Virus record (IMG/VR): IMGVR_UViG_3300045950_000203
Location: 1 to 41,805 of that record
Reading direction: 5' to 3' (one strand)
Length of the DNA: 41,805 bases
Source: a virus
Shown here one piece after another: positions 1 through 41,805 of the stretch; the stretch's first letter is position 1; each line of letters opens with the position of its first letter. A model generated the notes under the pieces. That model made no database searches and had not been told where the DNA came from. It saw nothing but the letters and a program-made list of their open reading frames with translations. Made by a program: the position numbers and the translations under genes.

Positions 1-127
1 TCAAAGTAAAATCTGTATTTTTGGCGTTATTCGCTGTGCCTGGTGCAGCAGAATCCACCGAAGTAGGAGCTGGATAGGCAGCGGTATAATCTCCGCTTCC
101 CTTAATACTTACGCCTAGTCGGCAGTT
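1..127. repeat. Terminal direct duplication, identical to 41679..41805. The contig closes into a 41678-bp circle or circular permutation.
   Basis: Exact identity read at both window ends (tcaaagtaaaatctgta...gcctagtcggcagtt). 127 nt is also a typical assembler k-mer overlap. Confidence 0.95.
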
Positions 128-4129: not shown

Positions 4130-4139
4130 GATTCTATCC

Positions 4140-4484
4140 TCAAACTTGCGTTACAGATCTGGAAATCGTGATTTTTCCTTGAAAAACTCTTTGCTTTTGT
4201 CCTCCAGGAGCTACAAGGAGAACATCATAAACTCCACTGGTTGCTTGAGTCAATCCAGCAGTTTGTGCTGCGGTAAGTTTCGCATCAAATTTTCCATTAA
4301 CTGCATCGGTAACGACAATTGTAAAATCAAACCACTTTGCTGTAGCTCCATAAGCTGTACGGGCAGTAGAATAAATTGAATAGCCTGTAATATTTAAAGC
4401 AGTAGTGGCATTTTGTTTTAGAGTGACATTCATCAAATAATCAGCATGTTGCTCGATTGTAATGTCTTTAGTTGCAGCGCCCAT
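4140..4484 (-). CDS. Small beta-sandwich (Ig/BppU-N-like) virion protein, paralogue of 40719..41093.
   Basis: 114-aa ORF. Its C-terminal motif ATSGVYDVLLV..QKQRVFQGKITISRSVTQV matches ATAGVYDIEMT..ISRILQGTVEFLPEVTV of the other ORF. It is the first gene of the leftward late operon. Confidence 0.6.
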   Translation of the reverse strand: MGAATKDITIEQHADYLMNVTLKQNATTALNITGYSIYSTARTAYGATAKWFDFTIVVTDAVNGKFDAKLTAAQTAGLTQATSGVYDVLLVAPGGQKQRVFQGKITISRSVTQV

Positions 4485-21582: not shown

Positions 21583-21652
21583 AAAAGAAGAGATTGTCGA
21601 TCGTAGCTCATTTCTAAAACGCAACTTATTGAAAAATAAAGAGAACCGAAAA

Positions 21653-22474
21653 ATGAATACCATAGAGCATGTTTTATCTGTGGATGATAAGCTATTTCGT
21701 CGAGAAACAGGAGCATGGGGGAAACGAATTTATGTCGATGAAGCGGGAAGAGAGTATGCAAACATCACAGGAATTTTGAAGGTGATTCCTAACCCGGCAT
21801 TATCGAATTGGAAAGCTAAAAATGAGAAAAATGCTTGCTGGAAAGCAGCGTGGAAAGTTTCTCAAAATTCTCATGTTGAAACTGAAGAGCAATTTTTTCA
21901 GCATTGCGAATCTGAATTTAAGAAAGAAAATATAGAACAAGAAGGGCAAAATGCAGCGACAATCGGTTTTATGATTCATGAAACAATCGAGCAAGAAATT
22001 CAGATCATGATGAGTCGGCAACTTGAGCTTCTAATTCAAACGCCTTCGTTGTTATCGGAGATTGATATAGCTTTAGATCACTTCCGAGAATTTGTAAAAA
22101 CTTTCAAACTTGATTTTATTTGTGCAGAGAGAGTTGTTTATTCAGAGAGGCAGCCTCGATTTGCCGGAACCATTGATGCAATAGCAAACATAAATGGAAT
22201 TGCTACACTCATAGACTGGAAAACGAGTAAGGCAATTTATCCTGAGTATTGGATTCAACTTGCGGCTTACCATAAAGCCTTTTTTAGGACCACGATGGTT
22301 GAACTGCCTCAAGTAGCGGTTGTCCTTATTCCTAAAGTTTCCTCTAAAGTCCCAGAAATTCAAATCTTAAAGGCTCACAGTTTAGAGAGATATTATCGAA
22401 CTTTTGAAGCGGCCTTTGAACTTTATCTATGGCAGAATTCCGACTTCTCTAGTTTAGCTCCTCATAGCACTTGA
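21653..22474 (+). CDS. PD-(D/E)xK (RecB/Cas4-like) exonuclease.
   Basis: GTIDAIANINGIATLIDWKTSK (D...DxK) and QLAAY motifs are present. The ORF track starts at TTG 21629, but ATG 21653 is more plausible. Confidence 0.65.
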   Translation: MNTIEHVLSVDDKLFRRETGAWGKRIYVDEAGREYANITGILKVIPNPALSNWKAKNEKNACWKAAWKVSQNSHVETEEQFFQHCESEFKKENIEQEGQNAATIGFMIHETIEQEIQIMMSRQLELLIQTPSLLSEIDIALDHFREFVKTFKLDFICAERVVYSERQPRFAGTIDAIANINGIATLIDWKTSKAIYPEYWIQLAAYHKAFFRTTMVELPQVAVVLIPKVSSKVPEIQILKAHSLERYYRTFEAAFELYLWQNSDFSSLAPHST

Positions 22475-22499: not shown

Positions 22500-22522
22500 G
22501 GTATTCTATTTTGGAGGTAAAC

Positions 22523-25219
22523 ATGTCTATGCTCGAAGCTGCTCTATTCTATCTTGGCTGTGGTATTTCGATCATTCCTTGTCAGTATAAAGAAAAGCAT
22601 CCTCTTCTTACCTGGAATTCTTATCGTGAGAGATTTCCTACAAAGGAAGAGTTAAAAAAATGGTTTCCTAAAAAGATCGAGAGAAATTTAGCTGCGATTA
22701 TGGGGAAAATCTCGGGAAACATGGAGGCCCTTGATATTGATGAAAAACATGAAGAAAATTTATCTCAGGAGTTTTTAAAGCGAGCTTCGGAATATGGACT
22801 TGATGAACTCATTGAGCGAATTCCTAGACAAAGAACTCCTACAGGGGGATTCCATTTAGTTTACCGCTGCAATACGATTGCTGGATCACAGAAGCTTGCA
22901 TTAAACGAGAAAAAAGAGGTCATCATCGAGACCCGAGGAGAAGGAGGATATATCATCATTTCTCCTTCCTTCGAATATAAATGGGAAAACAAAGAGCTAC
23001 TTCATGCAATTCCAACGATAACAGAAGAAGAACGGGATTCTTTGCTCTCTTTAGCTCGCAGTTTTAATAAGTTATCTTCAAACTATAATCCCCCCATTCC
23101 AGAGCAACAAAAAGCCGGTCCCGGAACAGTTTTCAATGAGAAAGGAAACTGGAAGGACATCCTTGAATCGCACGGATGGACTTTCGTTTTTAAGAGAAAG
23201 GGAATAGAATATCTTCGGCGACCAGGAAAGGATAGAGGAATTTCAGCTACTATTAACTATGATGGAAAAAATCTACTCCATGTGTTTTCCACCAATGCCT
23301 TTCCATTTGAGAACAAAAACTACAATAAATTCGCTGCTTATACTCTTCTAAACTTTCAGGGAAACTTTTCCAATGCGGCTAAAGATCTTTTTCAGAAGGG
23401 ATATATTCCCGATAAACCCTCGAAGCTTCGATTAGTTAATGAATCCGAAGATTTTCGTCAAATCAAAGATTTTATCAAGGATGCTCCTGAAGAGGATTTA
23501 TATTGTCCTTCAAACTGGAAAATTCAAGAAGGTGGAATTTTCCGAGAAGAAATTTCGATCGATGCCACAGGAGCTAAATCAATTCAATCACAAAGAATCT
23601 GCTTTCTTCCAGTCTATATCACCAAACGAATTTATGACATCGACACAAATGAAGAGAAAGTAGAAATTTCCTGGTATAAAGACGACTTATGGCATCAACA
23701 AGTTATCTCTCGATTAACTCTAGCTTCTAGCAATTCGATTATTTCTCTATCAAATCTTGGAATTCCGATTAACTCAAATAACGCCAAGATGATGATTAAA
23801 TTCTTTGAGGCTTTTGAATGTCTCAATTTAGATCAAATTCCAATAAAGCGTGCAACTGGCATTTTTGGGTGGCATGGATCTAATCTATTTATGTGGGGAA
23901 ATCAACTCATTGAAAAGAGTCATATCTGGATGGAAGATCCACCCTTGATTTTTTCAGGTAAAGATGCAGGAGAAGAGCAAGTCGCTAAGGCACTATATCT
24001 GCATGGAACCTTTGAAGAATGGTCCACCGTTTTAGAATTGATTCAGAACTATCCGCGGGTTATCTTTGGTCTTTACGCCTCCTTGGCTCCTCCCTTGATA
24101 AAAATTCTGAAAGCTCCTAATTTTGTGGTCAACTGGAGCTACATTACTTCGGCTGGTAAGACTTCACTCTTACGGCTTGCTGCTTCCGTTTGGGGCAACC
24201 CAGATGAAAAGTCGGCAGCTAGTCTCATAAAGTCATGGGATACTACTCGAATCGGACTAGAGAGAACGGCAACATTGCTAAACGATCTTCCGATTTTTTT
24301 AGATGATACCAAGCAAGTTCCTAGTTCCGAGCTTCTATCCTCTACTATCTACAAAATTTCAGCCGGAATTGGAAGAATTCGAGGTTCACCCAAGGGCACT
24401 CAAGTTATGGGAACTTGGAACTCGATCCTCCTGACTAACGGTGAATATCCTATAAACTCTAATAGCTCAGATGGAGGAGCCTTTGTGCGAACTATCGAAA
24501 TGTGGGGAAATCCTTGGGAAGAATCTAATAGATATATCGCAAAACTGATCGATACTATCTGGACAACTATATCTCGAAATTACGGGCACTTAGGTCCTAT
24601 ATTCATTCAGATTTTGATGAAACTTGAACCACAATGGAAAGAGTTAAAAAATATTTATGAAAAATCGATAACCAAGTTTTTAGCGATTGAAACAAACTCA
24701 CCGGCTGAATTCCGAATGGCAGCCTATTTTGCTTTACTAGACGTAACCGCAGCATTAGCCGATGCCCATTTTAAATTCCCCTGGAGTGGAGAGAAAGTAT
24801 TGGAGAAACTATGGAAACAGGTGGCAAAGGATACTGCCTATGCTGCCGACAAAGCTCAAGAATTCTTAGTTCAAACTCTCGAATGGGCTCACATTCATGA
24901 ATCGGAATTTTATGAACGCGCTCGCCTCGATAGTAAAGGAAATCCTATACCTCCTGTAAATGGATGGTTAGGTAGTTGGGAAAGGGACAACAAAAATAAC
25001 GGGTTCAGATGGGAATTTATCGGAATATTTCCTAACCGATTAAAAGCCTTTATCACTAGCTTAGGTGGAAACTATAACGCAACCATAAAAATCTGGAAAG
25101 AACGAGGATGGCTACTCGAAGATGAAATTCGCCATTTTCGTAAACAGATTAGAATCGGAAATGAACGATGGGATGTATTAGCGATTCCTCGTAACAAAAT
25201 CGAGGAAATAAGAGGATAA
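22523..25219 (+). CDS. Primase-polymerase (PrimPol N-domain) fused to a DUF927/SF3-type helicase.
   Basis: ALFYLGCGISIIPCQ, LDIDEKH and TPTGGFHLVY are prim-pol motifs. TSAGKTS is a Walker A and PIFLDD a Walker B. GGAGG lies 5 nt before ATG 22523, and the track's TTG 22511 overlaps this SD. Confidence 0.75.
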   Translation: MSMLEAALFYLGCGISIIPCQYKEKHPLLTWNSYRERFPTKEELKKWFPKKIERNLAAIMGKISGNMEALDIDEKHEENLSQEFLKRASEYGLDELIERIPRQRTPTGGFHLVYRCNTIAGSQKLALNEKKEVIIETRGEGGYIIISPSFEYKWENKELLHAIPTITEEERDSLLSLARSFNKLSSNYNPPIPEQQKAGPGTVFNEKGNWKDILESHGWTFVFKRKGIEYLRRPGKDRGISATINYDGKNLLHVFSTNAFPFENKNYNKFAAYTLLNFQGNFSNAAKDLFQKGYIPDKPSKLRLVNESEDFRQIKDFIKDAPEEDLYCPSNWKIQEGGIFREEISIDATGAKSIQSQRICFLPVYITKRIYDIDTNEEKVEISWYKDDLWHQQVISRLTLASSNSIISLSNLGIPINSNNAKMMIKFFEAFECLNLDQIPIKRATGIFGWHGSNLFMWGNQLIEKSHIWMEDPPLIFSGKDAGEEQVAKALYLHGTFEEWSTVLELIQNYPRVIFGLYASLAPPLIKILKAPNFVVNWSYITSAGKTSLLRLAASVWGNPDEKSAASLIKSWDTTRIGLERTATLLNDLPIFLDDTKQVPSSELLSSTIYKISAGIGRIRGSPKGTQVMGTWNSILLTNGEYPINSNSSDGGAFVRTIEMWGNPWEESNRYIAKLIDTIWTTISRNYGHLGPIFIQILMKLEPQWKELKNIYEKSITKFLAIETNSPAEFRMAAYFALLDVTAALADAHFKFPWSGEKVLEKLWKQVAKDTAYAADKAQEFLVQTLEWAHIHESEFYERARLDSKGNPIPPVNGWLGSWERDNKNNGFRWEFIGIFPNRLKAFITSLGGNYNATIKIWKERGWLLEDEIRHFRKQIRIGNERWDVLAIPRNKIEEIRG

Positions 25220-25223
25220 AATC

Positions 25224-25430
25224 ATGCCAGTTAAAGTCGAAAAGAAAGGTGATAAATACCGCGTAGTTGAAGCTAAAACAGGAAAAGTTGCCAAAAATAA
25301 GGGGGGCACAGCCCTCGACGGAGGCGGCTACTCTTCCAAAGCCAAAGCAGTCAAACAAGCTCAAGCAGTCAACATGTCGATGGAGCGAAAAAAAGGAAAC
25401 AAAAAGATTCCACCTCCTTCTAAAAATTGA
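25224..25430 (+). CDS. Small basic hypothetical protein.
   Basis: 68 aa with an AGAGGA SD, chosen over the overlapping frame 25267..25476. Confidence 0.45.
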   Translation: MPVKVEKKGDKYRVVEAKTGKVAKNKGGTALDGGGYSSKAKAVKQAQAVNMSMERKKGNKKIPPPSKN

Positions 25431-25455
25431 TCTTTCTGCAAAAAAAATATATAAT
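25427..25455 (+). promoter_or_regulatory. sigma70-type promoter upstream of the receiver gene.
   Basis: TTGATC 25427-32, 17-nt spacer, TATAAT 25450-55. Confidence 0.6.
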
Positions 25456-25461
25456 CACTCT

Positions 25462-25575
25462 CAGAATAATTTCTGAATGGGAATCTCCTTTGTTATCCTT
25501 ATCTACAAAGAGCATAGACCAAAAAAGATCGACAGTCTTTTAAACTATCCTAAAATTCCCATTCAGAAAATTCTC
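25462..25575 (+). repeat. Long-range inverted repeat in the receiver-gene leader.
   Basis: TTCTGAATGGGAAT (25471-84) is the exact reverse complement of ATTCCCATTCAGAA (25555-68). The arms extend imperfectly to about 22 nt and the spacer is about 70 nt. Confidence 0.8.
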
Positions 25576-25589
25576 TCTCCAAAACAAAC

Positions 25590-25976
25590 ATGAAAGCCTT
25601 TATTATCGAAGATGATATAAACTTCGCTAACTCTCTAGCAGAGAAACTAGGCAAACTCAGCTTTCAAATTGAAATCTTCGATTCTAGCGAAAAAGCAGAA
25701 GATGCTTTGTCTAATGAAATCCCAGATTTAATCACTCTTGATATAGGTCTTCCTGGAAAATCCGGTCTTGAACTTTTAAAATCTATTCGAGAAAATCCTA
25801 GAACTGAAAATATTTATGTTATCATTATCACTTGTATGGAATCTCAAATCCTTCGGATTATCGCTAAAGAATTGGGCGTTACCAGTTTCCTCTTGAAACC
25901 CTCTCTTTCCACTTGTTTAGATCTTGAAAAAACTATAAAATATCTATATGGACTCCGAGACGAACAAACTTCTTGA
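25590..25976 (+). CDS. Stand-alone CheY-like response-regulator receiver domain.
   Basis: All canonical residues are present: IIEDD (acidic pair), ITLDIGLPG (phospho-acceptor Asp), IIITC (Thr), LLKP (Lys). There is no output domain. Confidence 0.8.
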   Translation: MKAFIIEDDINFANSLAEKLGKLSFQIEIFDSSEKAEDALSNEIPDLITLDIGLPGKSGLELLKSIRENPRTENIYVIIITCMESQILRIIAKELGVTSFLLKPSLSTCLDLEKTIKYLYGLRDEQTS

Positions 25977-26268
25977 AAATATCCTTAACAAACTTAGCTT
26001 CGTAGATCGCTCCTCCGAGCTGCTTACTGAACATGCCCTCTCTCTTGCTAAACTTACGATGGAAATCGAAGCTATCAAACGACAACTAGCCCATTTTGAA
26101 ACAAATCAAGAAAAACTCTCTCCCGATCGCCGACTCTCCGCCCTAGAAGCAAAAGCCGAACTCCAAAAAACCCGTGAAACTGGAAAATGGCAACTCGCTG
26201 CTTCCCTCATTACCGGCCTCGTTGCTTTTATTACCGCCCTACTTGCCTATCTCAAAAACTCTCCTTGA
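25948..26268 (+). CDS. Coiled-coil protein with a C-terminal transmembrane anchor.
   Basis: 106 aa, overlapping the receiver gene by 29 nt. Heptad-like helices are followed by WQLAASLITGLVAFITALLAYL. Confidence 0.5.
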   Translation: MDSETNKLLENILNKLSFVDRSSELLTEHALSLAKLTMEIEAIKRQLAHFETNQEKLSPDRRLSALEAKAELQKTRETGKWQLAASLITGLVAFITALLAYLKNSP

Positions 26269-26293
26269 CTTAACCCATAAATTATTCTATCCT
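26265..26293 (+). promoter_or_regulatory. Possible sigma70-type promoter.
   Basis: TTGACT 26265-70, 17-nt spacer, TATCCT 26288-93. Confidence 0.4.
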
Positions 26294-26324
26294 ATAAAAC
26301 ACAAACAGAAAACTCCTCCTATTC

Positions 26325-26888
26325 ATGGAGACGGTTCTTTCTCCGCTACCAACTTCGGTAGCTTCTTTTTCTAATATGATAGTCATCTCCAATTCTCAAA
26401 AATCCATAACCCTAAAATTCCAAGGAGAAGATATTCTCGAAAGGGCCCTTCAACAATATATCCAAAACGTCAAAACCCGAAAATCTGCGATGAAAGCCGC
26501 TTCCCACATCCTCTATCTAGCCTCTAAAACCCAATTCAAAAAGGAGGGCGAACCTAAATGGCTCCCCCTTAAACCTTCTACCCTCAAAACCCGCAAAAAA
26601 CGAGGCTACAAACCAGGCCCCATCCTCCAACGCTCCAAAACCCTCATCCGCTCCATCCTCAAAGCCTGGGATAACAACTCCGCCTCCATCTATACAACCA
26701 CCTCCTACGCTCCATTCCATCAATTCGGAGCTAAAAAGTCAACTAGAAAATCCTCAACCCTAGCTAAAATCAGAAAAATCCTCTCCTCCCATCGATCTCT
26801 CCCCCCCCGCCCCTTCTTTAACCTCACCCCCACCGATGTCCAAAAACTTATCAAAACCTTCGTCGATCACCTTACCAAAAAAAAATAA
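26325..26888 (+). CDS. Virion morphogenesis protein (Mu gpG/P2 gpS-like family).
   Basis: KWLPLKPSTLKTRKKRGYKPGPILQRSKTLIRSI...YAPFHQFG...LPPRPFFNLTPTD matches the family pattern. The start is uncertain (ATG 26376 is possible). Codons are strongly C-ending. Confidence 0.6.
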   Translation: METVLSPLPTSVASFSNMIVISNSQKSITLKFQGEDILERALQQYIQNVKTRKSAMKAASHILYLASKTQFKKEGEPKWLPLKPSTLKTRKKRGYKPGPILQRSKTLIRSILKAWDNNSASIYTTTSYAPFHQFGAKKSTRKSSTLAKIRKILSSHRSLPPRPFFNLTPTDVQKLIKTFVDHLTKKK

Positions 26889-26963
26889 CCCTTGCATAAA
26901 ACATAAAAATCCGATAAAATACGAATCAGTTACCAAAGCAAGTACATACTTTGTATCTCCATC

Positions 26964-26987
26964 CCCGCTATAAAGCGGGTTCTTTTT
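26964..26987 (+). terminator. Possible intrinsic terminator.
   Basis: CCCGC-tataaa-GCGGG followed by TTCTTTTT. Confidence 0.45.
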
Positions 26988-26999
26988 GAGGAAATAACC

Positions 27000-27131
27000 A
27001 TGCCGAAAACAATCGTCGATACCTTCGATGTAATCTTTGAAAACCTAGAAAAATCCCCTCCTCCAGAATCAGAAGAAACCGAAAAAGAGGAAGAGGAAGA
27101 AGAATCAGAAGAAACCGAGGAAGAAGACTAA
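27000..27131 (+). CDS. Small highly acidic protein (43 aa, below the ORF-track cut-off).
   Basis: A GAGGAA SD precedes MPKTIVDTFDVIFENLEKSPPPESEETEKEEEEEESEETEEED*. The TAATG stop overlaps the next start. Confidence 0.5.
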   Translation: MPKTIVDTFDVIFENLEKSPPPESEETEKEEEEEESEETEEED

Positions 27132-27367
27132 TGCCTAAACATACCGTAAAGGAAGCCCTCCGCCATCCCGATGTCCTTGGCGCTGGCGCTAAAAAACGAA
27201 AAAAACTCAAATCCACCAAAGAAAAAATCCACGCCGTCATGGCCGAATTTGAACGCGGAACCCTTCACTCCGGCTCCGGCGAAAAAGTCACCTCCCGCAA
27301 GCAAGCCGTCGCTATCGCTATGTCCGAAGCCGGAACCTCCAAAAAGAAAAAGAAAAAAAGGAACTAA
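27131..27367 (+). CDS. Small basic protein (DUF6496-like).
   Basis: VMAEFERGTLHSGSGEKVTSRKQAVAIAMSEAG resembles the conserved core of that family. It is chosen over the overlapping frame 27171..27386. Confidence 0.5.
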   Translation: MPKHTVKEALRHPDVLGAGAKKRKKLKSTKEKIHAVMAEFERGTLHSGSGEKVTSRKQAVAIAMSEAGTSKKKKKKRN

Positions 27368-27369
27368 CC

Positions 27370-27651
27370 ATGCCCCAAACCCTTAACATCAAACCCGAAC
27401 AAGTCGCTAAACTTAACTCCGCCATCAAAAAGGCAACCCCCTTCGTCTCCGCTGCCTCCACCTTCGCCCCACCCCACCTCCAAGATCAAACAGAAATGCT
27501 CGCCACATTCCTCATGGAATACACCACCAAAGTCGCCCCCCTCCTCACTAAAGCCGCCTCTGACGGAAAAATCGATGAATCCGAAATGCTCACCCTCGCA
27601 ATGGCCCTACTCTCTGCCGTCTCCCTCGCCACTACCCCACAAAATACGTAA
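27370..27651 (+). CDS. Hypothetical protein.
   Basis: 93-aa ORF, last gene of the C-rich plus-strand island. Confidence 0.45.
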   Translation: MPQTLNIKPEQVAKLNSAIKKATPFVSAASTFAPPHLQDQTEMLATFLMEYTTKVAPLLTKAASDGKIDESEMLTLAMALLSAVSLATTPQNT

Positions 27652-27774
27652 ACCACTATGGCTAATTTACTCCCTGCATCCTCATAACCTAATAAATCAT
27701 AAATAAACTTTACAATCCCCCTACTCCCTGCTATCCTAAAACCATAATTCTATAGCCAGCAATCCCAAAACACA

Positions 27775-27800
27775 AAAGCCACGATCAAAACCGTGGCTTT
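27775..27800. terminator. Bidirectional hairpin terminator between convergent operons.
   Basis: AAAGCCACG-atcaaaac-CGTGGCTTT is a 9-bp stem with A/T runs on both sides. Confidence 0.6.
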
Positions 27801-28105
27801 CGTCTTGCCAAAATCTCTGCTTGTCAGCTATATCCTAGCTTATATCCTATATATATACATCAATTTAAAACTCCTATCAATCAATTTATATAGATGTATA
27901 ACGATTGTATTACAAGGAAATCATGCTCATGTGTATGAAACCCTGAGCCCCCAAAAGCGAGTTTCATAGAAAAAACGGAAATTTTTTATCCATTCAGAGG
28001 AAAGAAGAGGTAGACAAAAGAGAGTTGAGAAGCAGAAATGAAGGAGGGAGAGAAACCATCAGCGAGAAGAATCACATCGAGGACAGAATTCGTTTGCCTC
28101 TTTTT

Positions 28106-28182
28106 TCGGACTTGGAACCGGCTATCGCCCTATGCGATGGAGGGTTTACGCCCTTTCGGGCGCTTTCTCTGTAGAACTGTCC
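28106..28182 (-). other. Structured 3' element Y (minus strand) after gene 28183..28440, related to element X.
   Basis: On the minus strand it reads GGACAG..., then CGCCC-GAAA-GGGCG (28149-62, GNRA loop), ATCGC-atagg-GCGAT, and ...CCGGTTCCAAGTCCG (28107-21). Confidence 0.5.
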
Positions 28183-28440
28183 TCACCTATCCAAACTTCT
28201 TACTGCATTTTCTATCTCGGAATTTACAGAGTTTCCATAAAAATCGAAGATTCCTCCGGCCTTAGAGACGATCGTTCTTTCCCACTCATCTTGGGTATAA
28301 TTCCATCCACCAGTAGCAAAGTCCTCACGATAAAATTCTGGTGTTTGAAAATACCAGCTCACTCGTTGATATTTACCATTCTGCTTCACCCGATAAACAG
28401 CAACACCATGATAAGACGAAATAAACTCTACTGTAATCAT
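28183..28440 (-). CDS. Hypothetical protein.
   Basis: 85-aa ORF with an AAGGAAG SD. Confidence 0.5.
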   Translation of the reverse strand: MITVEFISSYHGVAVYRVKQNGKYQRVSWYFQTPEFYREDFATGGWNYTQDEWERTIVSKAGGIFDFYGNSVNSEIENAVRSLDR

Positions 28441-28476
28441 ATTTTCTTCCTTTGTTTACTTTTGTTGTTTGTTTAT

Positions 28477-28540
28477 TCCGGACTTGGAACCGGACCTCGT
28501 TTCACGAGGGGCCTTACAGGGGTTGCCCCCTGTCCTCGGT
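28477..28540 (-). other. Structured 3' element X (minus strand) after gene 28541..28855.
   Basis: On the minus strand it reads GGACAG, then CAGGGG-GCAA-CCCCTG (28517-32, GNRA loop), CCTCG-tgaaa-CGAGG, and CCGGTTCCAAGTCCGG (28479-93). Confidence 0.5.
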
Positions 28541-28855
28541 TTAGAACGGGCCATTCTGGCAATGCTCGATGCCGTAGCCGAAGCGCCGGCATCGGCAAGG
28601 CTCACCTGCCAGATCGCAGGGACACGGTGGAGGAGTAGATGGCCGATCTTCGCAAGCGACACAAAGGACATCAGCTTCCAACCGAATACCATCGACCTCC
28701 AGAACGGCATAGTCCTTGCGGGTGTCCTCGCAAACTACACACCCAGAAAACCCGCTGCCTCCACATACCGGACATGAAATTTCACGGAGGCGACCTGTCG
28801 GCCCTTCGATAATTACTGTCTGCCAACCCATGCACTCACGACATTTTTGACTCAT
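28541..28855 (-). CDS. Cys-rich zinc-ribbon protein (four CxxC motifs plus CPC and CRC).
   Basis: 104 aa with a strong AAGGAGGG SD. Motifs are CREC, CPVCGGSG (DnaJ-type CxxCxGxG), CVVC and CVAC. Codon usage is GC-rich, unlike the rest of the phage. Confidence 0.65.
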   Translation of the reverse strand: MSQKCRECMGWQTVIIEGPTGRLREISCPVCGGSGFSGCVVCEDTRKDYAVLEVDGIRLEADVLCVACEDRPSTPPPCPCDLAGEPCRCRRFGYGIEHCQNGPF

Positions 28856-29018
28856 TTTCCCTCCTTTCTCTAGGACACCGAGTACTGACCTCCGTTACCG
28901 ACGTAAATACTTTCGATGTCCATGTACACACATCACAAACAGCCACGAACAGTGAGTAAACATTCCCCTGCTCACTACGCTCTGGCCGCCAAAAGATCTT
29001 TAGCTCATGCTGCATCAT
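28836..29018 (-). CDS. Hypothetical small protein (60 aa).
   Basis: An AAGGAG SD lies 7 nt before ATGATG at 29018. The longer track ORF (to 29117) lacks an SD. Confidence 0.45.
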   Translation of the reverse strand: MMQHELKIFWRPERSEQGNVYSLFVAVCDVCTWTSKVFTSVTEVSTRCPRERRENESKMS

Positions 29019-29178
29019 GATCTTCTCCTTTCTCAGCTTGCGTCTCCAGATAAATCCAGAGCAGCGACAGAAACATGCGAGGCCGGAAATAGACCGGGAA
29101 AGCATAGTAAAACTCACGAATTCCCGGCCAGATTTGATCGGCTTGTCTGAGGTTCCTTGTAGTAATCACGCCTTTCAT
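29005..29178 (-). CDS. Hypothetical small protein (57 aa, below the ORF-track cut-off).
   Basis: An AAAGGAG SD precedes ATG 29178. The product is MKGVITTRNLRQADQIWPGIREFYYAFPVYFRPRMFLSLLWIYLETQAEKGEDHDAA*. The stop overlaps the next start. Confidence 0.4.
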   Translation of the reverse strand: MKGVITTRNLRQADQIWPGIREFYYAFPVYFRPRMFLSLLWIYLETQAEKGEDHDAA

Positions 29179-29208
29179 TGTTTTTCTCCTTTGTTATCCT
29201 TATTTATG

Positions 29209-29919: not shown

Positions 29920-30351
29920 TTACTCGGATTCTGAGAATTCTTCGACTAAATCTACGATTTCCTGGTCTTTTTTCAGATCATCCATGAACGATTTCTGAAG
30001 TAGTTGGCGAGCTAAAGCTTGACGCGCTTCTGGATATGGACCAAGTACTTCCATCAATGTGCCGATCATCTTATCCCAGTTAACGTTCTGCGTTTCCCGA
30101 GTATGATGTGAAATCTGGGTAGGTTTGCCTAGAATACGATCCAGCAGCTCATGAATCGCAGGAAGCGAACCTCCTCGCGCTTGTCGAACCAGCTCACGTA
30201 CTACAGCAATCATATCCTCCAATGACACCGCATAATAAAATGCCTCACGAAACTTCGAGATGTCTACTTTCTTCGCTTTATGCGTTAAATAGGGCACCGC
30301 CGGATTCTCAATCGACGGTAGAGATCTAAAGTGTGGTTTTTTCCTACTCAT
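29920..30351 (-). CDS. Hypothetical helical protein, possibly DNA-binding and possibly leaderless.
   Basis: 143 aa from ATG 30351 (MSRKKPHFRS...). A TATAAT -10 lies only 6 nt upstream. The segment ...ARGGSLPAIHELLDRILGKPTQ resembles a motif seen in small phage DNA-binding or small-terminase-like proteins. Confidence 0.5.
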   Translation of the reverse strand: MSRKKPHFRSLPSIENPAVPYLTHKAKKVDISKFREAFYYAVSLEDMIAVVRELVRQARGGSLPAIHELLDRILGKPTQISHHTRETQNVNWDKMIGTLMEVLGPYPEARQALARQLLQKSFMDDLKKDQEIVDLVEEFSESE

Positions 30352-30386: not shown

Positions 30387-30394
30387 ATGACAAA

Positions 30395-30415
30395 TGTGTT
30401 CAATTTTTGAACACA
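30395..30415. promoter_or_regulatory. Perfect 9-bp-arm palindrome upstream of that promoter.
   Basis: TGTGTTCAA-ttt-TTGAACACA. Confidence 0.7.
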
Positions 30416-30642
30416 TCACCTGTGAAAATATTTTCATATTGAATAAAACAGAAAAATGGTAAACTATTACCCACAAATATATAATTATTTAATACTAATT
30501 ATATCTACCTAACTGAAGAACGACATTCAGCTATTAACTGTATAATATTAAAGAACTTTAGAAGTGTTGGATAACCCTACACTTTTGTCACTTTATACCG
30601 CAAAGTGGAAAAACCCTAATAATTTCAACTACTTACGCGATT

Positions 30643-31324
30643 ATGTGACAATGTGACAGTGAAACCTCGCGGGTTGGCATGGAGGTAGGCGGGATCATTG
30701 AGGAATTTGTTAAAAATTGTATATATCTGGTATTATTCAGGAATTTGGTCGTGGAAATTGGAAATGTGACAATGTGACAAAATGATTTTAACAGATAATC
30801 AAGTAATATCAGATAGATGAGTGTGTTTTTCGGTTTCAAAAAATTGTCACATTGGAGGGAAGGTATATTGCGCGCGTATGCGCGCGTATACTATGTACTG
30901 TCAGTAGATACTATTCACGCGCGCGCAGGTAAAAGTATATGGTCCTATGTCTTCGATGTGACAGTTTTTTGAATCTCAACTACTTTGGAGATGGGTGATT
31001 TTTAACAGGAATTTTCATTTTAGGGTTTGTCACATTGTCACATTTTCGATTTCCGTGGCCGGAATCGTGAATAATTTCGGGTAGTTACGAAAACGCTTTA
31101 AAAGCATAGGGTTACTGGTCGGTTGGGGTTCAGATGGAAATCAATTGAAGGTGTTTAAATCGTAAGTTATTGAAGTAGAAGGGTAAAAAAAATGTGACAA
31201 TGTGACAGGCCGGAAATTGAGGGTTTTGGGGGCGGAATTTTTTACAATTAGAGTATAATTGTTAGAGTTGGAGAAGAAAGGATAAGGAAGTCAATGAATT
31301 AGGGGCGTGAAAAAAAATGTGACA
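30643..31324. repeat. Dispersed ATGTGACA iterons (four tandem doublets plus three singles, in both orientations).
   Basis: ATGTGACAATGTGACA occurs at 30643-58, 30764-79 and 31192-207, and inverted at 31028-43. Singles occur at 30845-52 (inverted), 30956-63 and 31317-24. Most are preceded by an A-run. Confidence 0.85.
30838..30970. repeat. Dyad element of about 133 bp with alternating purine-pyrimidine GC cores.
   Basis: The outer arms are AAAAAATTGTCACAT and ATGTGACAGTTTTTT. The inner elements are TGCGCGCGTATGCGCGCGTATA (30869-90, 22 nt strictly alternating Py-Pu) and CACGCGCGCGCA (30916-27). The central element is TACTGtCAGTA. Confidence 0.8.
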
Positions 31325-31644
31325 AAATTTAATGCGATGGATAGGGGGGGATTGGGGCTTATTGAGATTTTAGGTTATGGGGACAGAGGAAGTGGCGGAT
31401 TTTGGTGTTGGTTTTTTGGGGGTTTTGGGGTGACATTGATTTAAAGGGGTCAAATTTGACCGCTATTGCACGATCGTTTTTATGATGGAGGAAGAGGCTA
31501 TCAGAGAGGTGATCGTTTAATCTGGAGGCTTTTTAGGGCATAGAAATTAGGAATAGTTGATTAGTGGTTGGGTTTTAAGAAGGGGGTATCAAGGATCTTC
31601 ATCGTCGAATTCAGAAGATCTTTCGTTTGGATGGATGTGGTAAA

Positions 31645-35015: not shown

Positions 35016-35888
35016 TTGAAGAAAAACATGAGCAAACAAGCGATTACTAATGCAACTCGAACGGATCTATTTTTGATGGACCCAGCGCAGTTAACTATCA
35101 TCGGACTAGACACTCCCGATAAGGAGAATCATCCTCTTTATGATTCGCGGATTCATTTGCCTCTTGATGAGGCAATGGTAAAAAATATAATGACATTCGG
35201 AGTACTAGAACCTGTTTTAGTCAGAAAAAACGGAGAAAATATCGAGGTTCTTGACGGTAAACAGCGGGTCCGACATGCCAGAGAGGCAAACAAACGATTA
35301 GAGGCTCAAGGTAGTAAACCTCTGAGAATTTCGGTACTTGCCCCCAAGAGAGAATCAGATAAGAATCTCGCAGGAATAATGGTTTCTGCTAATGAGATTC
35401 GTAGGAGCGATGAATGGGTTCAAAGAGCTGAAAAAGCTCTAAAACTCCTAAATTTCGGTTACACAAAACCTGAGATTGCTAATCTTTTTAATGTATCAAT
35501 GGCGACAGTTACTCAATGGCTTATGTTTTTTGATTTGGATGAAACCATTAAAGCAAAAATTGTCAATGGCGATTTGGCTCCTTCTACGGCTACATTATTA
35601 GCCAAGTTTTCCCATGAACAGCAAAAAGAAGAGTTGTTAAAACTTGAGAAAGCCAAAGACAATAATGGCAAAAGCAAAATCAGAAAAAATTCTGTTATCG
35701 AAACTATTTCTAAATCAAAATCTAAACCTCTCCCAGGAAAAAAACTCCTTAAAGGTATTCTGAAACATCAAGAATATTCAGATATTTTGCCTAATGGTTT
35801 CTTGGCTGCTCTTGAGTGGATTCTCGGCGAAATTCAAACAGAAGATATTCCCGGTCTCTCTGAAATTTTAAAGGAGTTGGAAAAATGA
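35016..35888 (+). CDS. ParB N-terminal-domain protein with an HTH.
   Basis: LEPVLVRKNGENIEVLDGKQRVRHA is a ParB/Srx box, and KPEIANLFNVSMATVTQWL is an HTH. An alternative start is ATG 35028. Confidence 0.65.
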   Translation: MKKNMSKQAITNATRTDLFLMDPAQLTIIGLDTPDKENHPLYDSRIHLPLDEAMVKNIMTFGVLEPVLVRKNGENIEVLDGKQRVRHAREANKRLEAQGSKPLRISVLAPKRESDKNLAGIMVSANEIRRSDEWVQRAEKALKLLNFGYTKPEIANLFNVSMATVTQWLMFFDLDETIKAKIVNGDLAPSTATLLAKFSHEQQKEELLKLEKAKDNNGKSKIRKNSVIETISKSKSKPLPGKKLLKGILKHQEYSDILPNGFLAALEWILGEIQTEDIPGLSEILKELEK

Positions 35889-36274
35889 GTCTTATAGCAA
35901 TCATCGGAAAACTCATAGGCCCGATTGCAGAAGTAATAGATCGCGTGATTCCAGACAAAAACGTCTCGAATCACTTGACGTCTCAGATTCAAAAAGAGCT
36001 TATGGAAAAAGTTTACAAGAATCTCGAACAGGAGCTTGATGCTCAGGTTCAGGTTTTACTGGCAGAGGCCAAGGGTGATCTCTGGATTCAGAAAGCATGG
36101 CGGCCCATTGCCATGCTCGCGTTTACGGCAATTGTCTTTTTTTATACGCTTCTACCTGCTGTCGCTGGCACAAATCCACCACCATTACCAGATCAAATCT
36201 GGTATTTTTTGGATATTAGCATGGGTGGTTACATCGTGGGACGGTCGGCGGAGAAAATTCTGAAAAAGCCATGA
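35885..36274 (+). CDS. Putative holin (3-TM, GTA-holin-like).
   Basis: 129 aa. LAEAKGDLWIQKAWRPIAMLAFTAIVFFYTLLPAV plus a further hydrophobic segment resembles the Holin-of-3TMs family. Confidence 0.5.
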   Translation: MSLIAIIGKLIGPIAEVIDRVIPDKNVSNHLTSQIQKELMEKVYKNLEQELDAQVQVLLAEAKGDLWIQKAWRPIAMLAFTAIVFFYTLLPAVAGTNPPPLPDQIWYFLDISMGGYIVGRSAEKILKKP

Positions 36275-37140
36275 AATCAAAGAAAGGAATTATTATGAAA
36301 ACTTGGCATGATAATTCATCCTTAAAAGATCATTTTATTACTCAAATGCAATCTCATTATGATGCAGATGAATTGGTTAAAGGGTATTATTGGGAAAATG
36401 GGAAAGGTTGTGCAATCGGATGTGTTACGCATAGCGGAAAAAATCCGCATTCAGAATTTGAAAAACTAACAGGGATTCCTCGGATAATTGTAAGGATTGT
36501 AGATTTAATTTTTGAGCGACTTTCAAACGAAGAAGCGAAGAAGTGGCCTTTGCAATTTTTGAAGGCGGTGCCAGTTGGTGTTAATCCGGTATTCTGGTGG
36601 CCGAAGTTTTCACTTTGGCTTTTAATAGATCCTAAAGAAGGTATTATCCGGTTTGCCAAAACTAACCGTACAGAGGTAATAAATCAGGTAGCCAATCTTT
36701 ATAAACGACAGATTTTAGGAGAGCGAATTTCTCAAGAGGATTGGCGAAATTCCGCCGCCGCCGCCGCCTACGCCGCCGCCTACGCCGCCGCCTACGCCGC
36801 CGCCGACGCCGCCGCCTACGCCGCCGCCTACGCCGCCGCCTACGCCGCCGCCTACGCCTCCTACGCCGACGACGCCTCCTACGCCGACGACGCCTACGCC
36901 GCCGCCTACGCCGCCGCCTACGCCGCCGATGCCGCCGCCGCCTACGCCGCCGCCTACGCCGCCGCCTACGCCGCCGACGCCGCCGACGCCGCCGCCTACG
37001 CCGCCGCCGCCTACGCCGCCGCCTACGCCGCCGACGCCGACGCTAAAACTGCGACATATCAAAAAGCATATCAAAAAATGAGAGATAAACTATTAGAGAT
37101 TGTAGGAAAAACTAAGGAATGCAATAATGAAATCAGATAA
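36271..37140 (+). CDS. Hypothetical protein: globular Cys/Trp-containing N-domain plus a low-complexity region of about 95 aa, (AAAY)n/(AAD)n.
   Basis: 289-aa ORF with ATGA overlap with the holin gene. The repeat is in frame and flanked by normal sequence. Confidence 0.7.
   Translation: MKSKKGIIMKTWHDNSSLKDHFITQMQSHYDADELVKGYYWENGKGCAIGCVTHSGKNPHSEFEKLTGIPRIIVRIVDLIFERLSNEEAKKWPLQFLKAVPVGVNPVFWWPKFSLWLLIDPKEGIIRFAKTNRTEVINQVANLYKRQILGERISQEDWRNSAAAAAYAAAYAAAYAAADAAAYAAAYAAAYAAAYASYADDASYADDAYAAAYAAAYAADAAAAYAAAYAAAYAADAADAAAYAAAAYAAAYAADADAKTATYQKAYQKMRDKLLEIVGKTKECNNEIR
36752..37043 (+). repeat. Tandem 12-nt repeat array, GCCGCCGCCTAC and variants.
   Basis: Read directly. About 24 units with GAC/GAT/TCC variants. 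It is very GC-rich, and all frames on both strands are open. Confidence 0.9.
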
Positions 37141-37228
37141 AAAAACATGGGATAATTTAAGCCCAGAATTAAAGAAAATTCTCACTCCAGATCGCGATAA
37201 ACCTATAAGTCAACTACCCGTCCCCTAA
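37127..37228 (+). CDS. 33-codon ORF, possibly the truncated N-terminus of a duplicated copy of the upstream gene.
   Basis: MKSDKKTWDNLSPELKKILTPDRDKPISQLPVP* can be compared with MKSKKGIIMKTWHDNSSLKDHFI of 36271..37140. Its stop sits in the loop of hairpin 37217-38. Confidence 0.3.
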   Translation: MKSDKKTWDNLSPELKKILTPDRDKPISQLPVP

Positions 37229-37590
37229 AGGGGACGGGCTTGTCCGGAAGCAATCCTGAACAGGCCCCACGTTGACCAGCTTCAGCCAGGGCCTTCGGGC
37301 TACCGGGCTACGTTATCTGAGTCAGGACACCCTGGGGTGCTTCGCCAGCTCCAGGCACTTTGTGTCGTCCGGCATTAAACAGGTGTAAGGGGTTTAGGCC
37401 AGTGTGCCGGATGTAAAAAGCTCGGATAACATTGGCGAGGAGAGACTCCGATCTCATTCGGAGCGTTACCAGCCCCTTACGGGGACCGCTTAGAGGGGAG
37501 GGCCTTCGGGCTCTCCCCTTGTGAGCGGATGCTAAAAAGGCGCTCCTCCCCTTCCCTCTCATAGAAAGGGTGTCCGCGCCTGGGAGGATT
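37212..37590 (+). ncRNA. Candidate structured non-coding RNA of unknown class.
   Basis: A GC-rich island with no ORF of 60 aa or more on the + strand. It has at least six strong hairpins, including two C(UUCG)G hairpins, and G-T wobbles compatible only with the + strand. See findings. Confidence 0.5.
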
Positions 37591-37615
37591 TATGACTTTT
37601 AAAAGGAGCTGAAAT

Positions 37616-37705
37616 ATGGGATATATATTTTATCATTGTACAAAACATAATTGGGAATCAGTCGATCCTTGTCTCTTTTGCCAAAAAGAAAAACAATCGG
37701 TATGA
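37616..37705 (+). CDS. 29-aa Cys/His mini-protein.
   Basis: An AAAGGAG SD lies 7 nt before the ATG. The product is MGYIFYHCTKHNWESVDPCLFCQKEKQSV*. Confidence 0.4.
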   Translation: MGYIFYHCTKHNWESVDPCLFCQKEKQSV

Positions 37706-37788
37706 TCGAAACAGCAGGAGGTTTTACAATTATTGCTCGCTCTTTAGGAGATGTGATTCAAGCTTTAGAATCATTGAAAGGAGAATGA
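37702..37788 (+). CDS. 28-aa hypothetical peptide.
   Basis: ATGA start/stop overlap with the previous ORF. The product is MIETAGGFTIIARSLGDVIQALESLKGE*. Confidence 0.35.
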   Translation: MIETAGGFTIIARSLGDVIQALESLKGE

Positions 37789-37797
37789 AATAAATAA

Positions 37798-37986
37798 ATG
37801 GAACCAGATGAAATATGGGAATTTTTCAGCTTTATACGAGAAGTAGCTTTGTATGAAATATATCAAACTTTGATTTTTCATCAAGAACAGAGCATGACTA
37901 TTGTTGAATGTGCTTTTCTTGATCTCTATGGAGAACGGCTGAATTACTTCAGAGAATGTGCGGAATTTGAAAATCGAGCAAGATAG
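37798..37986 (+). CDS. Hypothetical protein.
   Basis: 62-aa ORF with a GGAGAA SD upstream. Confidence 0.45.
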   Translation: MEPDEIWEFFSFIREVALYEIYQTLIFHQEQSMTIVECAFLDLYGERLNYFRECAEFENRAR

Positions 37987-38031
37987 TTGTAAAATTTTGG
38001 CAGAATTTAAAAAAATAAAATAGTTTGTAGC

Positions 38032-38667
38032 TTACCACAGATCCCAATTAAAATTCTGCTCTCTGTCTAAAGTAGAAATAATCGGAATTTCATTTCGAGA
38101 AGGACGGCTATGAATATTCCCCCCCATTTTGAATTGTTCTGCATACCAAAGAGGCAAAGCTAGAGCAATCACCATGTCGTCATGTTTACCTCGATCCGCT
38201 TCATAAGAATCCTCACCTTGTGTTCCAATTTTGACTCTGAAACTGATAAGTTGATTTCTTAGAGTTCTAGCTAAATCCATTTGTCCTGCAATTTTTAGCC
38301 GGCCTGATTCTAGTACAATTGCTAAAGCGCCAACTAAATCACGCTTTGGTAGGCGATAGTCAACTAAATTCACTTCGACAACATTGTAACCTCCCGTGAT
38401 TTGAACAGAAATTACAGAGAGTTTTTCTCGAAGATAATCAATAATCGGAGTTCCGATTCCTGTTGCATCTACCACAAGAGTATGATTTTCTTTGAATGGT
38501 TCTTTGTTTAGACATTCAAACAGAAAACTTACAATCTGTGGATAGGGAGTATGTAAAGGAAAACTGCGGATATTCCTCAATAGATATAGATCTGATGTCT
38601 GCTCGATTAAAGTCAATGTAGATGGATCTTTTGTTTTTCCTAGATCTAATCCGAATAGGAATCTCAA
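38032..38667 (-). CDS. terL: Large terminase, nuclease (RNase H-like) domain as a separate ORF.
   Basis: LFGLDLGKTKDPSTLTLIE supplies the first catalytic Asp and HDDMVIALALPLWY the last Asp. The start is TTG 38667, overlapping the TGA of the ATPase ORF. Confidence 0.75.
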   Translation of the reverse strand: MRFLFGLDLGKTKDPSTLTLIEQTSDLYLLRNIRSFPLHTPYPQIVSFLFECLNKEPFKENHTLVVDATGIGTPIIDYLREKLSVISVQITGGYNVVEVNLVDYRLPKRDLVGALAIVLESGRLKIAGQMDLARTLRNQLISFRVKIGTQGEDSYEADRGKHDDMVIALALPLWYAEQFKMGGNIHSRPSRNEIPIISTLDREQNFNWDLW

Positions 38668-39419
38668 TTGAAAAACTCCATCGGTTCTATAGAATTGTCA
38701 AAGGCTCTTTCAATCGCAGTCAATGAAAAAAACTGATCTTCACTTTCAATAAACTCGCATAAAAAGTCCTGACGAAAAGCCCAATCTGACATGCGATCGC
38801 GTAAATTTTCAAGATAATTCTGATCGATTCGAGGATTTTGATAAGCATTTATTAAAATTTTTTTCCAGGTTTCTTTTGAATTCCATTCTTGCCAAAAAAT
38901 TCCTCTTTTTCCTGCCGGTGTAGAAAGTAAAATCAGTTTTCCTTTTGAAACTGCTAACATTGGAAGAACTGAATAATAAAGGTTATCTTCGATTCGAGCT
39001 GCTTCATCAATGATCAGAAGCGAAACTGATGAATATCCTCGAATCGTTTCCTCTTTACCAGGTAAACAAATGATCCTTGATCCATTTTCACATTCTAATT
39101 TAAGTGCTGATTCTTCCGTAACTGGAAGTTGAACTTCCTTCAAAATCGCATAAAACTGACGAACTTTCCTAAAAAGTTCCTGACTCTGACGCAAACTAGG
39201 AGATAAAATTAGAGTAAGCGCGTGAGAGCGAGATATTGTGTTATGAAATCCAGCTAAGGCAGCTATTGTACTTTTTCCTGATTGTCGAGCGCAATTTAAG
39301 ATAATCTTTGGAGCCTGAGAAAGTAGAACTTCTTCTTGCCACGGATCGAGCTTTAATCCGGCTAACTCTGCTAATAGTGTAGGATCAAGAGCAGTTCCGA
39401 TTTTAAGATTAGGATTCAT
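38664..39419 (-). CDS. terL: Large terminase, ATPase domain as a separate ORF.
   Basis: Walker A is CARQSGKST, Walker B is LLIIDEAA, and the coupling motif is LLSTP. The product is 251 aa. Confidence 0.8.
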   Translation of the reverse strand: MNPNLKIGTALDPTLLAELAGLKLDPWQEEVLLSQAPKIILNCARQSGKSTIAALAGFHNTISRSHALTLILSPSLRQSQELFRKVRQFYAILKEVQLPVTEESALKLECENGSRIICLPGKEETIRGYSSVSLLIIDEAARIEDNLYYSVLPMLAVSKGKLILLSTPAGKRGIFWQEWNSKETWKKILINAYQNPRIDQNYLENLRDRMSDWAFRQDFLCEFIESEDQFFSLTAIERAFDNSIEPMEFFN

Positions 39420-41565: not shown

Positions 41566-41805
41566 TTAGACGAATACAACAAACATCATTACATTCGCTG
41601 TTGCCGCCATTGTATCGTTGGCGTGACCTCCTTCTCGTCCAATTCGCACTTTGATTAGGTTTCCTACGGTTAAACTGCTCAAAGTAAAATCTGTATTTTT
41701 GGCGTTATTCGCTGTGCCTGGTGCAGCAGAATCCACCGAAGTAGGAGCTGGATAGGCAGCGGTATAATCTCCGCTTCCCTTAATACTTACGCCTAGTCGG
41801 CAGTT
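41566..41805 (-). CDS. C-terminal end of the same fibre gene (...NTDFTLSSLTVGNLIKVRIGREGGHANDTMAATANVMMFVVFV*). 41679..41805 duplicates 1..127.
   Basis: The frame is continuous with the 1..4129 ORF across the circular junction. The TAA stop is at 41568..41566. Confidence 0.85.
   Translation of the reverse strand, partial: NCRLGVSIKGSGDYTAAYPAPTSVDSAAPGTANNAKNTDFTLSSLTVGNLIKVRIGREGGHANDTMAATANVMMFVVFV
41679..41805. repeat. Second copy of the 127-bp terminal duplication (= 1..127).
   Basis: Same as above. Confidence 0.95.

Follow-up and report, generated by a model that had tools for sequence, protein, structure and literature searches.

Origins served by Rep initiator helicases, among them SaPIbov1 Rep (PDB 8tch), have been described for the Staphylococcus aureus pathogenicity islands, SaPIs (Ubeda et al., 2007, as cited in PMC9371898 and PMC7581432). 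The Rep proteins of SaPIs act as self-loading helicases, with a C-terminal winged helix that binds 6-12 short iterons, and these iterons are located directly downstream of rep, where they flank an AT-rich centre in opposite directions (PMC9371898). The DUF927 protein Cch of the staphylococcal cassette chromosome SCCmec is related to SaPIbov1 Rep (PMC7581432), and for fusions of a Prim-Pol domain with a helicase, origin recognition has been predicted as the role of the C-terminal winged helix (PMC5862659). Here we report on the phage genome IMGVR_UViG_3300045950_000203 from IMG/VR (positions 1 to 41,805; this whole stretch of 41,805 nucleotides is called the window), in which a gap of 1.25 kb between leftward genes (30395-31644) contains a cluster of the octamer ATGTGACA. 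It is well supported in silico that this region is the vegetative replication origin of the phage, of the self-loading-initiator-helicase type, and we consider this reading likely. The region is most likely a cognate iteron origin, with the ATGTGACA cluster as putative binding sites of the primase-helicase of the phage.

The candidate initiator is a protein of 902 amino acids (22511-25219, plus strand) that combines a Prim-Pol domain, a DUF927 (MCM-like) helicase and a putative C-terminal Cch-type helix-turn-helix (HTH)/winged-helix domain (about 24791-25216). It matched the Pfam families Prim-Pol (1.9e-17) and DUF927 (5.1e-46), and in a phmmer comparison its helicase part matched PDB 8tch (2.1e-29). 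The best full-length Foldseek matches of an AlphaFold2 model of residues 340-902 (mean predicted local distance difference test score, pLDDT, 88.8) were SaPIbov1 Rep, 8tch (E 8e-28, template modelling score 0.70), and SCCmec Cch, 5dgk (E 5e-26). The C-terminus of the model folds as strand-strand-helix-helix-hairpin-helix with block-mean pLDDT values of 66-92, and the last 140 residues gave a sub-threshold match to Pfam HTH_56 ('Cch helix-turn-helix'; E 3.4e-4, 21 bits), whose curated cut-off is exceeded by the homologues P0126 and P0129. By sequence and modelled structure, the protein is thus a member of the family of SaPIbov1 Rep and Cch (DUF927), which comprises self-loading initiators that bind iterons. 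A gene for a separate loader is not evident in the window.

The octamer ATGTGACA is present in 11 exact copies in the whole window, every one within 30643-31324, as compared with 0.79 +/- 0.98 copies expected from dinucleotide-preserving shuffles (0 of 100 shuffles reached 11). The copies are arranged as four doublets and three singles in both orientations (seven octamers on the plus strand, four on the minus strand, plus two degenerate sites), and the four 16-mer doublets are the only ones in the window. Spacings between iteron units amount to 121-125 bp. Copies with one mismatch show no enrichment over the genome (25 vs 25.3 expected). The following features were found in and at the edge of the gap.

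30393-30417: palindrome with a perfect 11-bp stem, AATGTGTTCAA/TTGAACACATT, just upstream of a promoter-like site
30420-30560: AT-rich tract (22% G+C), candidate DNA-unwinding element
30586-30593, minus strand: degenerate iteron AAGTGACA, a GTGACA site flanking the field
30643-30658, plus strand: iteron doublet ATGTGACAATGTGACA
30719-31088: outer imperfect palindrome of about 355 bp, enclosing both spacers and the inner dyad
30764-30779, plus strand: iteron doublet, part of the left 63-nt arm of the outer palindrome
30780-30844: spacer of 65 bp (25% G+C) between a rightward doublet and a converging leftward single
30835-30973: inner dyad (139 nt) with arms 30835-57 and 30951-73, 87% complementary
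30845-30852, minus strand: single iteron in the left outer arm of the inner dyad
30956-30963, plus strand: single iteron in the right outer arm of the inner dyad
30964-31027: spacer of 64 bp (31% G+C) between a rightward single and a converging leftward doublet, mirroring 30780-30844
31028-31043, minus strand: inverted iteron doublet, part of the right arm of the outer palindrome
31192-31207, plus strand: iteron doublet within a unit of ~37 nt that recurs 124-125 bp onward
31208-31644, plus strand: G-rich, C-poor tract (144 G vs 32 C)
31317-31324, plus strand: single iteron preceded by an A8 run
31428-31435, plus strand: degenerate iteron GGGTGACA, a GTGACA site with the same sequence as the iteron of homologue locus L144

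The least stable 50-bp duplex of the genome (30459-30508; -48.7 kcal/mol vs a mean of -63.7, standard deviation 5.0) lies in the AT-rich tract and adjoins the iterons. The core of the iteron field is mirror-symmetric: a rightward doublet, the 65-bp spacer and a leftward single are followed by the GC dyad and then by a rightward single, the 64-bp spacer and a leftward doublet. As DNA, the inner dyad folds far better than its shuffles (z = -5.5). It contains the alternating pyrimidine-purine tracts TGCGCGCGTATGCGCGCGTATA (30869-90, 22 nt) and CACGCGCGCGCA (30917-28, 12 nt), with two copies of TGCGCGCGTA (30869-30888), an inverted TGCGCGCG (30920-30927) and the central palindrome TACTGTCAGTA (30896-30906). 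The three exact copies of TGCGCGCG, all in this dyad, are the only ones in the genome. Alternating purine-pyrimidine runs together with self-complementary arms are the sequence features of a Z-DNA/cruciform element, and the sequence of the dyad is compatible with the formation of such structures. The octamers with their positions, the nearly ORF-free gap (ORF, open reading frame), the AT-rich tract, the dyad, its alternating tracts and the G-rich distal part had all been listed in the original prediction, an earlier reading made from the letters alone, and were recovered as described there. It had missed the outer palindrome, whose 63-nt arms (30719-81 and 31026-88, 76% complementary) hold two doublets and whose 378-nt fold reaches z = -7.7.

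Within the 1.25-kb region, TAA, TAG and TGA are all present in all six frames; the region is therefore non-coding even with a recoded stop, and hidden coding by stop-codon reassignment is ruled out. Neither a tRNA nor a significant match to an Rfam family was found in it, the one Rfam hit (E 0.25) being sub-threshold. In the G-rich flank, the GC skew of the plus strand rises up to +0.68. G-quadruplexes were ruled out there, no canonical motif being present, and so was the idea that such a flank is a general trait of these origins, as it is absent beside 11 other iteron clusters.

On the assumption that the field serves the helicase, homologues of the primase-helicase should have iteron clusters of their own. 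This prediction was tested on seven independent loci encoding DUF927 homologues with an identity of only about 30-35%, by an unbiased search for the densest repeated 7-mer across each whole locus. The top cluster was located directly 3' of the helicase gene in six of the seven:

L144: directly 3' of the helicase gene, GGGTGACA
L146: directly 3' of the helicase gene, CGGMGACA, 11 copies
L147: directly 3' of the helicase gene, GTGTWACA, 11 copies
L150: directly 3' of the helicase gene, CGGGGACA, 11 copies
L148 (Thermoanaerobacterium phage THSA-485A), 7618-7982: directly 3' of the helicase gene, GGTWACC, 10 copies
L149 (Faecalibacterium phage FP_Epona), 7831-8157: directly 3' of the helicase gene, AGGTGAAA, 10 copies, with an AT-rich core
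L151: 2.8 kb downstream, beyond an integrase gene, YGGGGGCA, 12 copies around an AT-rich core

All seven clusters consist of abutting doublets or triplets in both orientations, the same grammar as in the window, and some have an AT-rich core. DUF927-type helicase genes are thus associated with iteron clusters of one grammar, and the closest homologues have a related core as well. Alignment of the motifs of L144, L146, L147, L150 and L151 at their 3' ends gave the consensus NNGNGACA, which ATGTGACA fits and from which the L147 and L151 motifs each deviate at one fixed position. When ATGTGACA was compared with NGGNGACA, derived from L144, L146 and L150 alone, five of six fixed positions matched, for which we roughly estimate a chance of a few per cent with register and strand allowed for. 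The common NNGNGACA core points to conservation in how the DNA is read. The clusters of THSA-485A and FP_Epona, for which the database records have no annotated feature on the iteron-bearing gap, are probably the replication origins of those phages. In the window, no repeat cluster was found right after the helicase gene (25220-25589), and the field at 30.6-31.4 kb is therefore the only candidate cognate site. The iteron clusters of the same grammar at the loci of DUF927-helicase homologues are the evidence which we regard as decisive for the origin reading.

The same comparison bears on the possibility that the region is a packaging (pac) site, at which the adjacent 143-aa protein (29920-30351) would act as small terminase and bind repeats upstream of its own gene. 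At known pac sites (P1, SPP1), short repeats flank a cut site. The 143-aa protein is weakly DUF5681-like (E 0.011; remote relatives reach 1.3e-6), its model shows a bundle of three helices and then a long C-terminal helix, and no small-terminase gene is evident beside the large terminase (38032-39419) or elsewhere. However, its structure had no significant match in PDB or BFVD, with small terminase only among the non-significant ones, and the large terminase is 8 kb distant. Moreover, the THSA-485A cluster lies beside the helicase gene, ~2.9 kb and seven genes upstream of the terminase small-subunit gene, and the iteron core is common to loci with a homologous helicase and not to loci sharing a terminase. 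We consider a pac site quite unlikely, since it leaves the helicase-linked comparative pattern unexplained.

Pattern scans with the 16-mer and with a 19-mer were run over viral (including IMG/VR), metagenome and genome collections. In IMG/VR and the metagenomes, the 16-mer scan returned mostly noise, plus several contigs with inverted ATGTGACA arrays flanking an AT-rich core. In four contigs, the array starts within ~40 bp of the stop codon of a gene for a primase-helicase of ~820 aa:

L140, L010 and L017: ATGTGACA array at the 3' end of the helicase gene, BT4734_N + DUF3987 type
L019: ATGTGACA array at the 3' end of the helicase gene, VapE type

For the array of L013, the helicase gene is about 3 kb away. 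Among loci L001-L142, excluding L022, the primase-helicase is the only window protein with a relative in ATGTGACA-containing loci. The domain which the window primase (aa 197-337) has in common with L140-type proteins was considered as iteron reader and rejected, because it is part of a widely shared primase module that is fused to many helicase types. Many matches were eukaryote-like minisatellites (L049, L079, L100), and others were single unidirectional arrays, mostly in Bacteroidota genomes, with no helicase nearby. Arrays were also present in bacterial contigs:

L124, 1579-1760: ATGTGACA array
L122, 3906-3921: ATGTGACA array
L131, 1363-1837: ATGTGACA array
L164, 5412-5476: ATGTGACA array

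These bacterial arrays sit between housekeeping genes (carB, oxaloacetate decarboxylase beta); those of L124 and L131 are inverted around AT-rich cores, and the small ORFs beside these two had no Pfam matches. The ATGTGACA motif alone is not diagnostic, because arrays occur in contigs without a helicase gene in the retrieved DNA; taken by itself it proves nothing, and we therefore relied on the protein-anchored comparison. A separate observation concerns L085, a metagenome contig of 1.2 kb (1-1224), in which seven ATGTGACA sites follow the window's own grammar (an A-run with a single, a doublet with a G-run, an inverted doublet with a T-run). On one side of these sites an HTH ORF ends, and on the other is a 241-aa ORF with a DYD...H motif, which had no family or PDB match.

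The arrays between housekeeping genes in L124 and L131, similar in being inverted around AT-rich cores, might indicate that the region is a palindromic mobile insert, akin to a miniature inverted-repeat transposable element, that is bounded by inverted ATGTGACA arrays and has no function for the phage. The palindrome forms a unit of about 370 bp bounded by 63-nt imperfect terminal inverted repeats. However, four of the 11 iterons and both degenerate sites lie outside it, the window has neither a transposase nor a second copy, no target-site duplication was seen in the flanks, and the arrays of L140, L010, L017 and L019 are found at the 3' ends of helicase genes, as with origins. We therefore consider a mobile insert extremely unlikely.

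The relatives of the primase-helicase in ATGTGACA loci, of which no other window protein had any, also weigh in the choice between 'origin or centromere', which the original prediction had left undecided. A centromere would be a partition site bound by the ParB-like protein (35016-35888) that stabilises a plasmid-like prophage. This protein, encoded 4 kb off, matched phrog_1033 (7.8e-39) and HTH_ParB (8e-5; 23.2 bits, cut-off 22.6), and, below threshold, ParB_N (18.8 bits, cut-off 26.3). The complete genome revealed no integrase, and an extrachromosomal lifestyle is therefore conceivable; moreover, dispersed repeats, both direct and inverted, characterise some centromeres. However, a ParABS centromere needs ParA, and none of the window proteins that were scanned against Pfam or PHROGs gave a match to a ParA, CbiA-type or Walker partition ATPase. 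The ParB-like gene is flanked by a VRR-NUC nuclease gene and a holin gene at that distance from the repeats, and the genes called at the homologue loci, where the repeats follow the same grammar, include no ParB family. Of the two proposals, the centromere is thus very unlikely, while the origin gains support from the initiator family, the iteron clusters of the homologue loci, the easiest-melting DNA of the genome and the minimum of the GC skew.

The region might also be an operator array or regulatory hub through which a DNA-binding protein would control the leftward genes, for example by handcuffing or immunity-type control, and not an initiation site. Downstream of it, gene 29920-30351 on the minus strand is preceded by a promoter-like site (30386->30358) whose -35 element abuts the perfect palindrome at 30393-30417, and nested palindromes are typical of operators. 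However, a repressor gene was not found, an array of eleven sites that spans 680 bp and runs in both orientations is far larger than the usual operator, and the association with DUF927 helicases across loci would be unexplained, all of which makes this reading unlikely. The 30393-30417 palindrome itself, whose half-site starts with ATGTG as the iteron does, could serve as an operator or a terminator bordering the origin. Both the operator and the mobile-insert readings are less consistent with the data than the origin, although none of the four alternatives (centromere, pac site, operator, mobile insert) is mutually exclusive with it.

The origin proposed here is similar to SaPI origins in several respects. 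The initiator is a structural and sequence homologue of SaPI Rep with a predicted C-terminal winged-helix/HTH domain, the number of short iterons (11) lies within the range of 6-12, with both orientations and at least two iterons each way, the DNA between opposed iterons is AT-rich (spacers of 25% and 31% G+C), and a separate loader gene is not evident. In contrast to SaPIs, the iterons, mostly in abutting doublets, are octamers where SaPIs have penta- or hexamers; the field is not compact but extends over about 680-850 bp; it lies 5.2 kb from rep and not immediately downstream; the centre of symmetry is a GC-rich alternating purine-pyrimidine dyad and not an AT-rich tract; and the primase is a fused Prim-Pol domain. 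In its position and its central dyad, the element thus departs from the narrow SaPI pattern. SCCmec Cch has the same DUF927 helicase fold and an HTH_56 C-terminal domain, to which the window protein has a sub-threshold match, while no origin is defined for Cch itself and SCCmec elements are chromosomal cassettes, not phages. The putative origin of Cch2 likewise has short repeats near the helicase gene, which are bound by the C-terminal domain; unlike in the window, only three AAGTG repeats are recognised (PMC7581432).

The alpha protein of the satellite phage P4 has the same order of primase, helicase and C-terminal winged helix (PMC2777425). It combines a DnaG-type primase with a D5-type superfamily 3 helicase, whereas the window protein is of the Prim-Pol/DUF927 kind. 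According to work of the Ziegelin/Lanka and Calendar laboratories, the P4 iterons are reportedly octamers, TGTTCACC, in direct and inverted orientation, and crr, a second cis element located kilobases from ori, consists of roughly 120-bp repeats. The spacings of 121-125 bp between iteron units in the window are similar to this figure; however, P4 has two iteron fields and the window one. Iteron plasmid origins of the RepA/pi/TrfA type have clustered short repeats beside an AT-rich unwinding element as well, but they differ in their direct repeats of 17-22 bp, their non-helicase Rep, for which the window encodes no protein of that kind, and their reliance on DnaA and DnaB.

Several points weigh against the region being the origin. 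The field begins 5.2 kb past the rep stop codon, whereas adjacency is found in SaPIs and in six of the seven homologue loci; we take adjacency as typical of the narrow SaPI case and not as required for the mechanism, because the L151 cluster is displaced too. The palindrome centre is GC-rich where SaPI origins are AT-rich, the HTH_56 match of 21 bits lies under the gathering score of 26.2, and ATGTGACA arrays were also found in bacterial contigs (L124, L131, others) with no helicase gene within the retrieved DNA. The plot of GC skew, which had been proposed as a means to locate the origin, gave a mixed result: in the circular genome, the cumulative skew reaches its global minimum at position 30,636, which is five bases ahead of the first doublet, but no more than 5.3 kb separate this minimum from the maximum (25,306), so that no classical replichore pattern is seen. 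As the curve is driven by two blocks of odd composition (25.3-29.2 kb, C-rich; 31.0-32 kb, G-rich) and the maximum is so near, we gave the minimum little weight. Finally, neither a DNA comparison with INPHARED nor an IMG/VR search via flanking proteins (143-aa, 220-aa, primase, RecT) revealed close relatives of the phage, and no close homologue of the 143-aa neighbour was found among 5.8 billion proteins.

If the region is the origin, we infer that binding, melting and priming occur there in the following way. The C-terminal winged-helix/HTH domain of the Prim-Pol/DUF927 primase-helicase would recognise the ATGTGACA octamers, and hexamers would form on oppositely oriented iterons, for which the mirror-image units of doublet, AT spacer and single (30764-30852 and 30956-31043) would be the likeliest loading sites. 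The duplex might open in the 64-65-bp spacers and/or in the adjacent tract of 22% G+C (30420-30560). The helicase would then travel 3'->5' while the Prim-Pol domain makes primers, which would be extended by a host polymerase, since the window encodes no DNA polymerase gene. The RecT and exonuclease genes may support later, recombination-dependent replication.

A bipartite origin can also be imagined, in which the helicase iterons are joined by a second conserved cis element, a (CG)3-TA box, represented here by the cruciform-/Z-DNA-prone dyad at the centre of symmetry. A TACGCGCG box is found 9-27 nt 5' of the ATGTGACA arrays in L124 and L131, two unrelated bacterial contigs, and in L164 CGCGCG occurs 35 nt ahead of the array. 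We regard this proposal as tentative and rather improbable. If it were true, the unit of ATGTGACA and CG box would be a portable origin module common to phages and chromosomal elements, the alternating tract could be a supercoil-sensitive switch or a priming start site, and the strongly G-rich flank could belong to the same device.

Regarding the genomic setting, the first 127 nt of the contig are repeated at 41679-41805, and owing to this terminal direct repeat the genome is complete and circularly closed, with 41,678 bp. The only other matching contig, from a Logan assembly, was 100% identical. The phage is myovirus-like and is organised as follows.

4.5-21 kb: structural module
21629-22474: exonuclease
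22511-25219, plus strand: primase-helicase, 902 aa
25.3-29.2 kb: C-rich block of odd composition
29.2-33.1 kb: leftward genes, broken by the 1.25-kb gap studied
33.4-36.3 kb: RecT, VRR-NUC, ParB-like protein and holin
38-40.7 kb: terminase and portal

The block at 25300-29200 has 42-58% G+C, compared with ~38% in the genome, and a GC skew of the plus strand down to -0.57. A protein with a response-regulator receiver domain is encoded at 25590-25976, a tail-completion gene at 26325-26888 is located away from the tail module, and 27001-27652 contains three small C-rich ORFs, including one of the DUF6496 family. The block parts the rep gene from the proposed origin and may be foreign DNA. A match to the type-P5 twister ribozyme (RF02684; 28478-28540, minus strand; 40.1 bits vs a gathering score of 37.6) is flanked by two ORFs on the minus strand, namely a Cys-rich one of 104 aa (28541-28855) and one ending about 28150-28441, and could process a polycistronic phage transcript. 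At 37209-37449 (plus strand), a strong HEARO/omega-RNA match was found (Rfam RF02033; 138.7 bits vs a gathering score of 83). No ORF of IscB/HNH size follows, 37300-38000 containing only ORFs of 45-84 aa, and the phage genome seems to carry an orphan HEARO RNA.

The densest short-repeat cluster of the genome is formed by the 7-mer CCTACGC, with 18 copies in 36767-37030 (plus strand), where a 12-nt coding tandem repeat, CCGCCGCCTACG with variants, is located inside ORF 36271-37140 and accounts for a local G+C peak. A minus-strand ORF of >1383 aa with collagen-like Gly-X-Y repeats (2-4150), which continues past the left end of the window, is probably a tail fibre. The large terminase (38032-39419, minus strand) is apparently split into two adjacent ORFs with a 4-nt overlap, of which 38664-39419 matches large-terminase PHROGs and 38032-38667 is a weak match to the Terminase_6C nuclease; the portal gene is located upstream of the terminase, not downstream.

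The element is of an ordinary kind, and iteron origins of self-loading initiator helicases are already known. The present results do not overturn the current understanding. They provide a concrete, testable pair of origin and initiator for a phage lineage without cultured or sequenced close relatives, and they extend the SaPI/SCCmec rule of 'Rep helicase plus downstream iterons' to primase-helicases of the Prim-Pol/DUF927 and DnaG/DUF927 types, in phages as well as integrated elements, including the cultured phages THSA-485A and FP_Epona. The NNGNGACA core may be of use for predicting origins from helicase sequences and for building orthogonal replicons.

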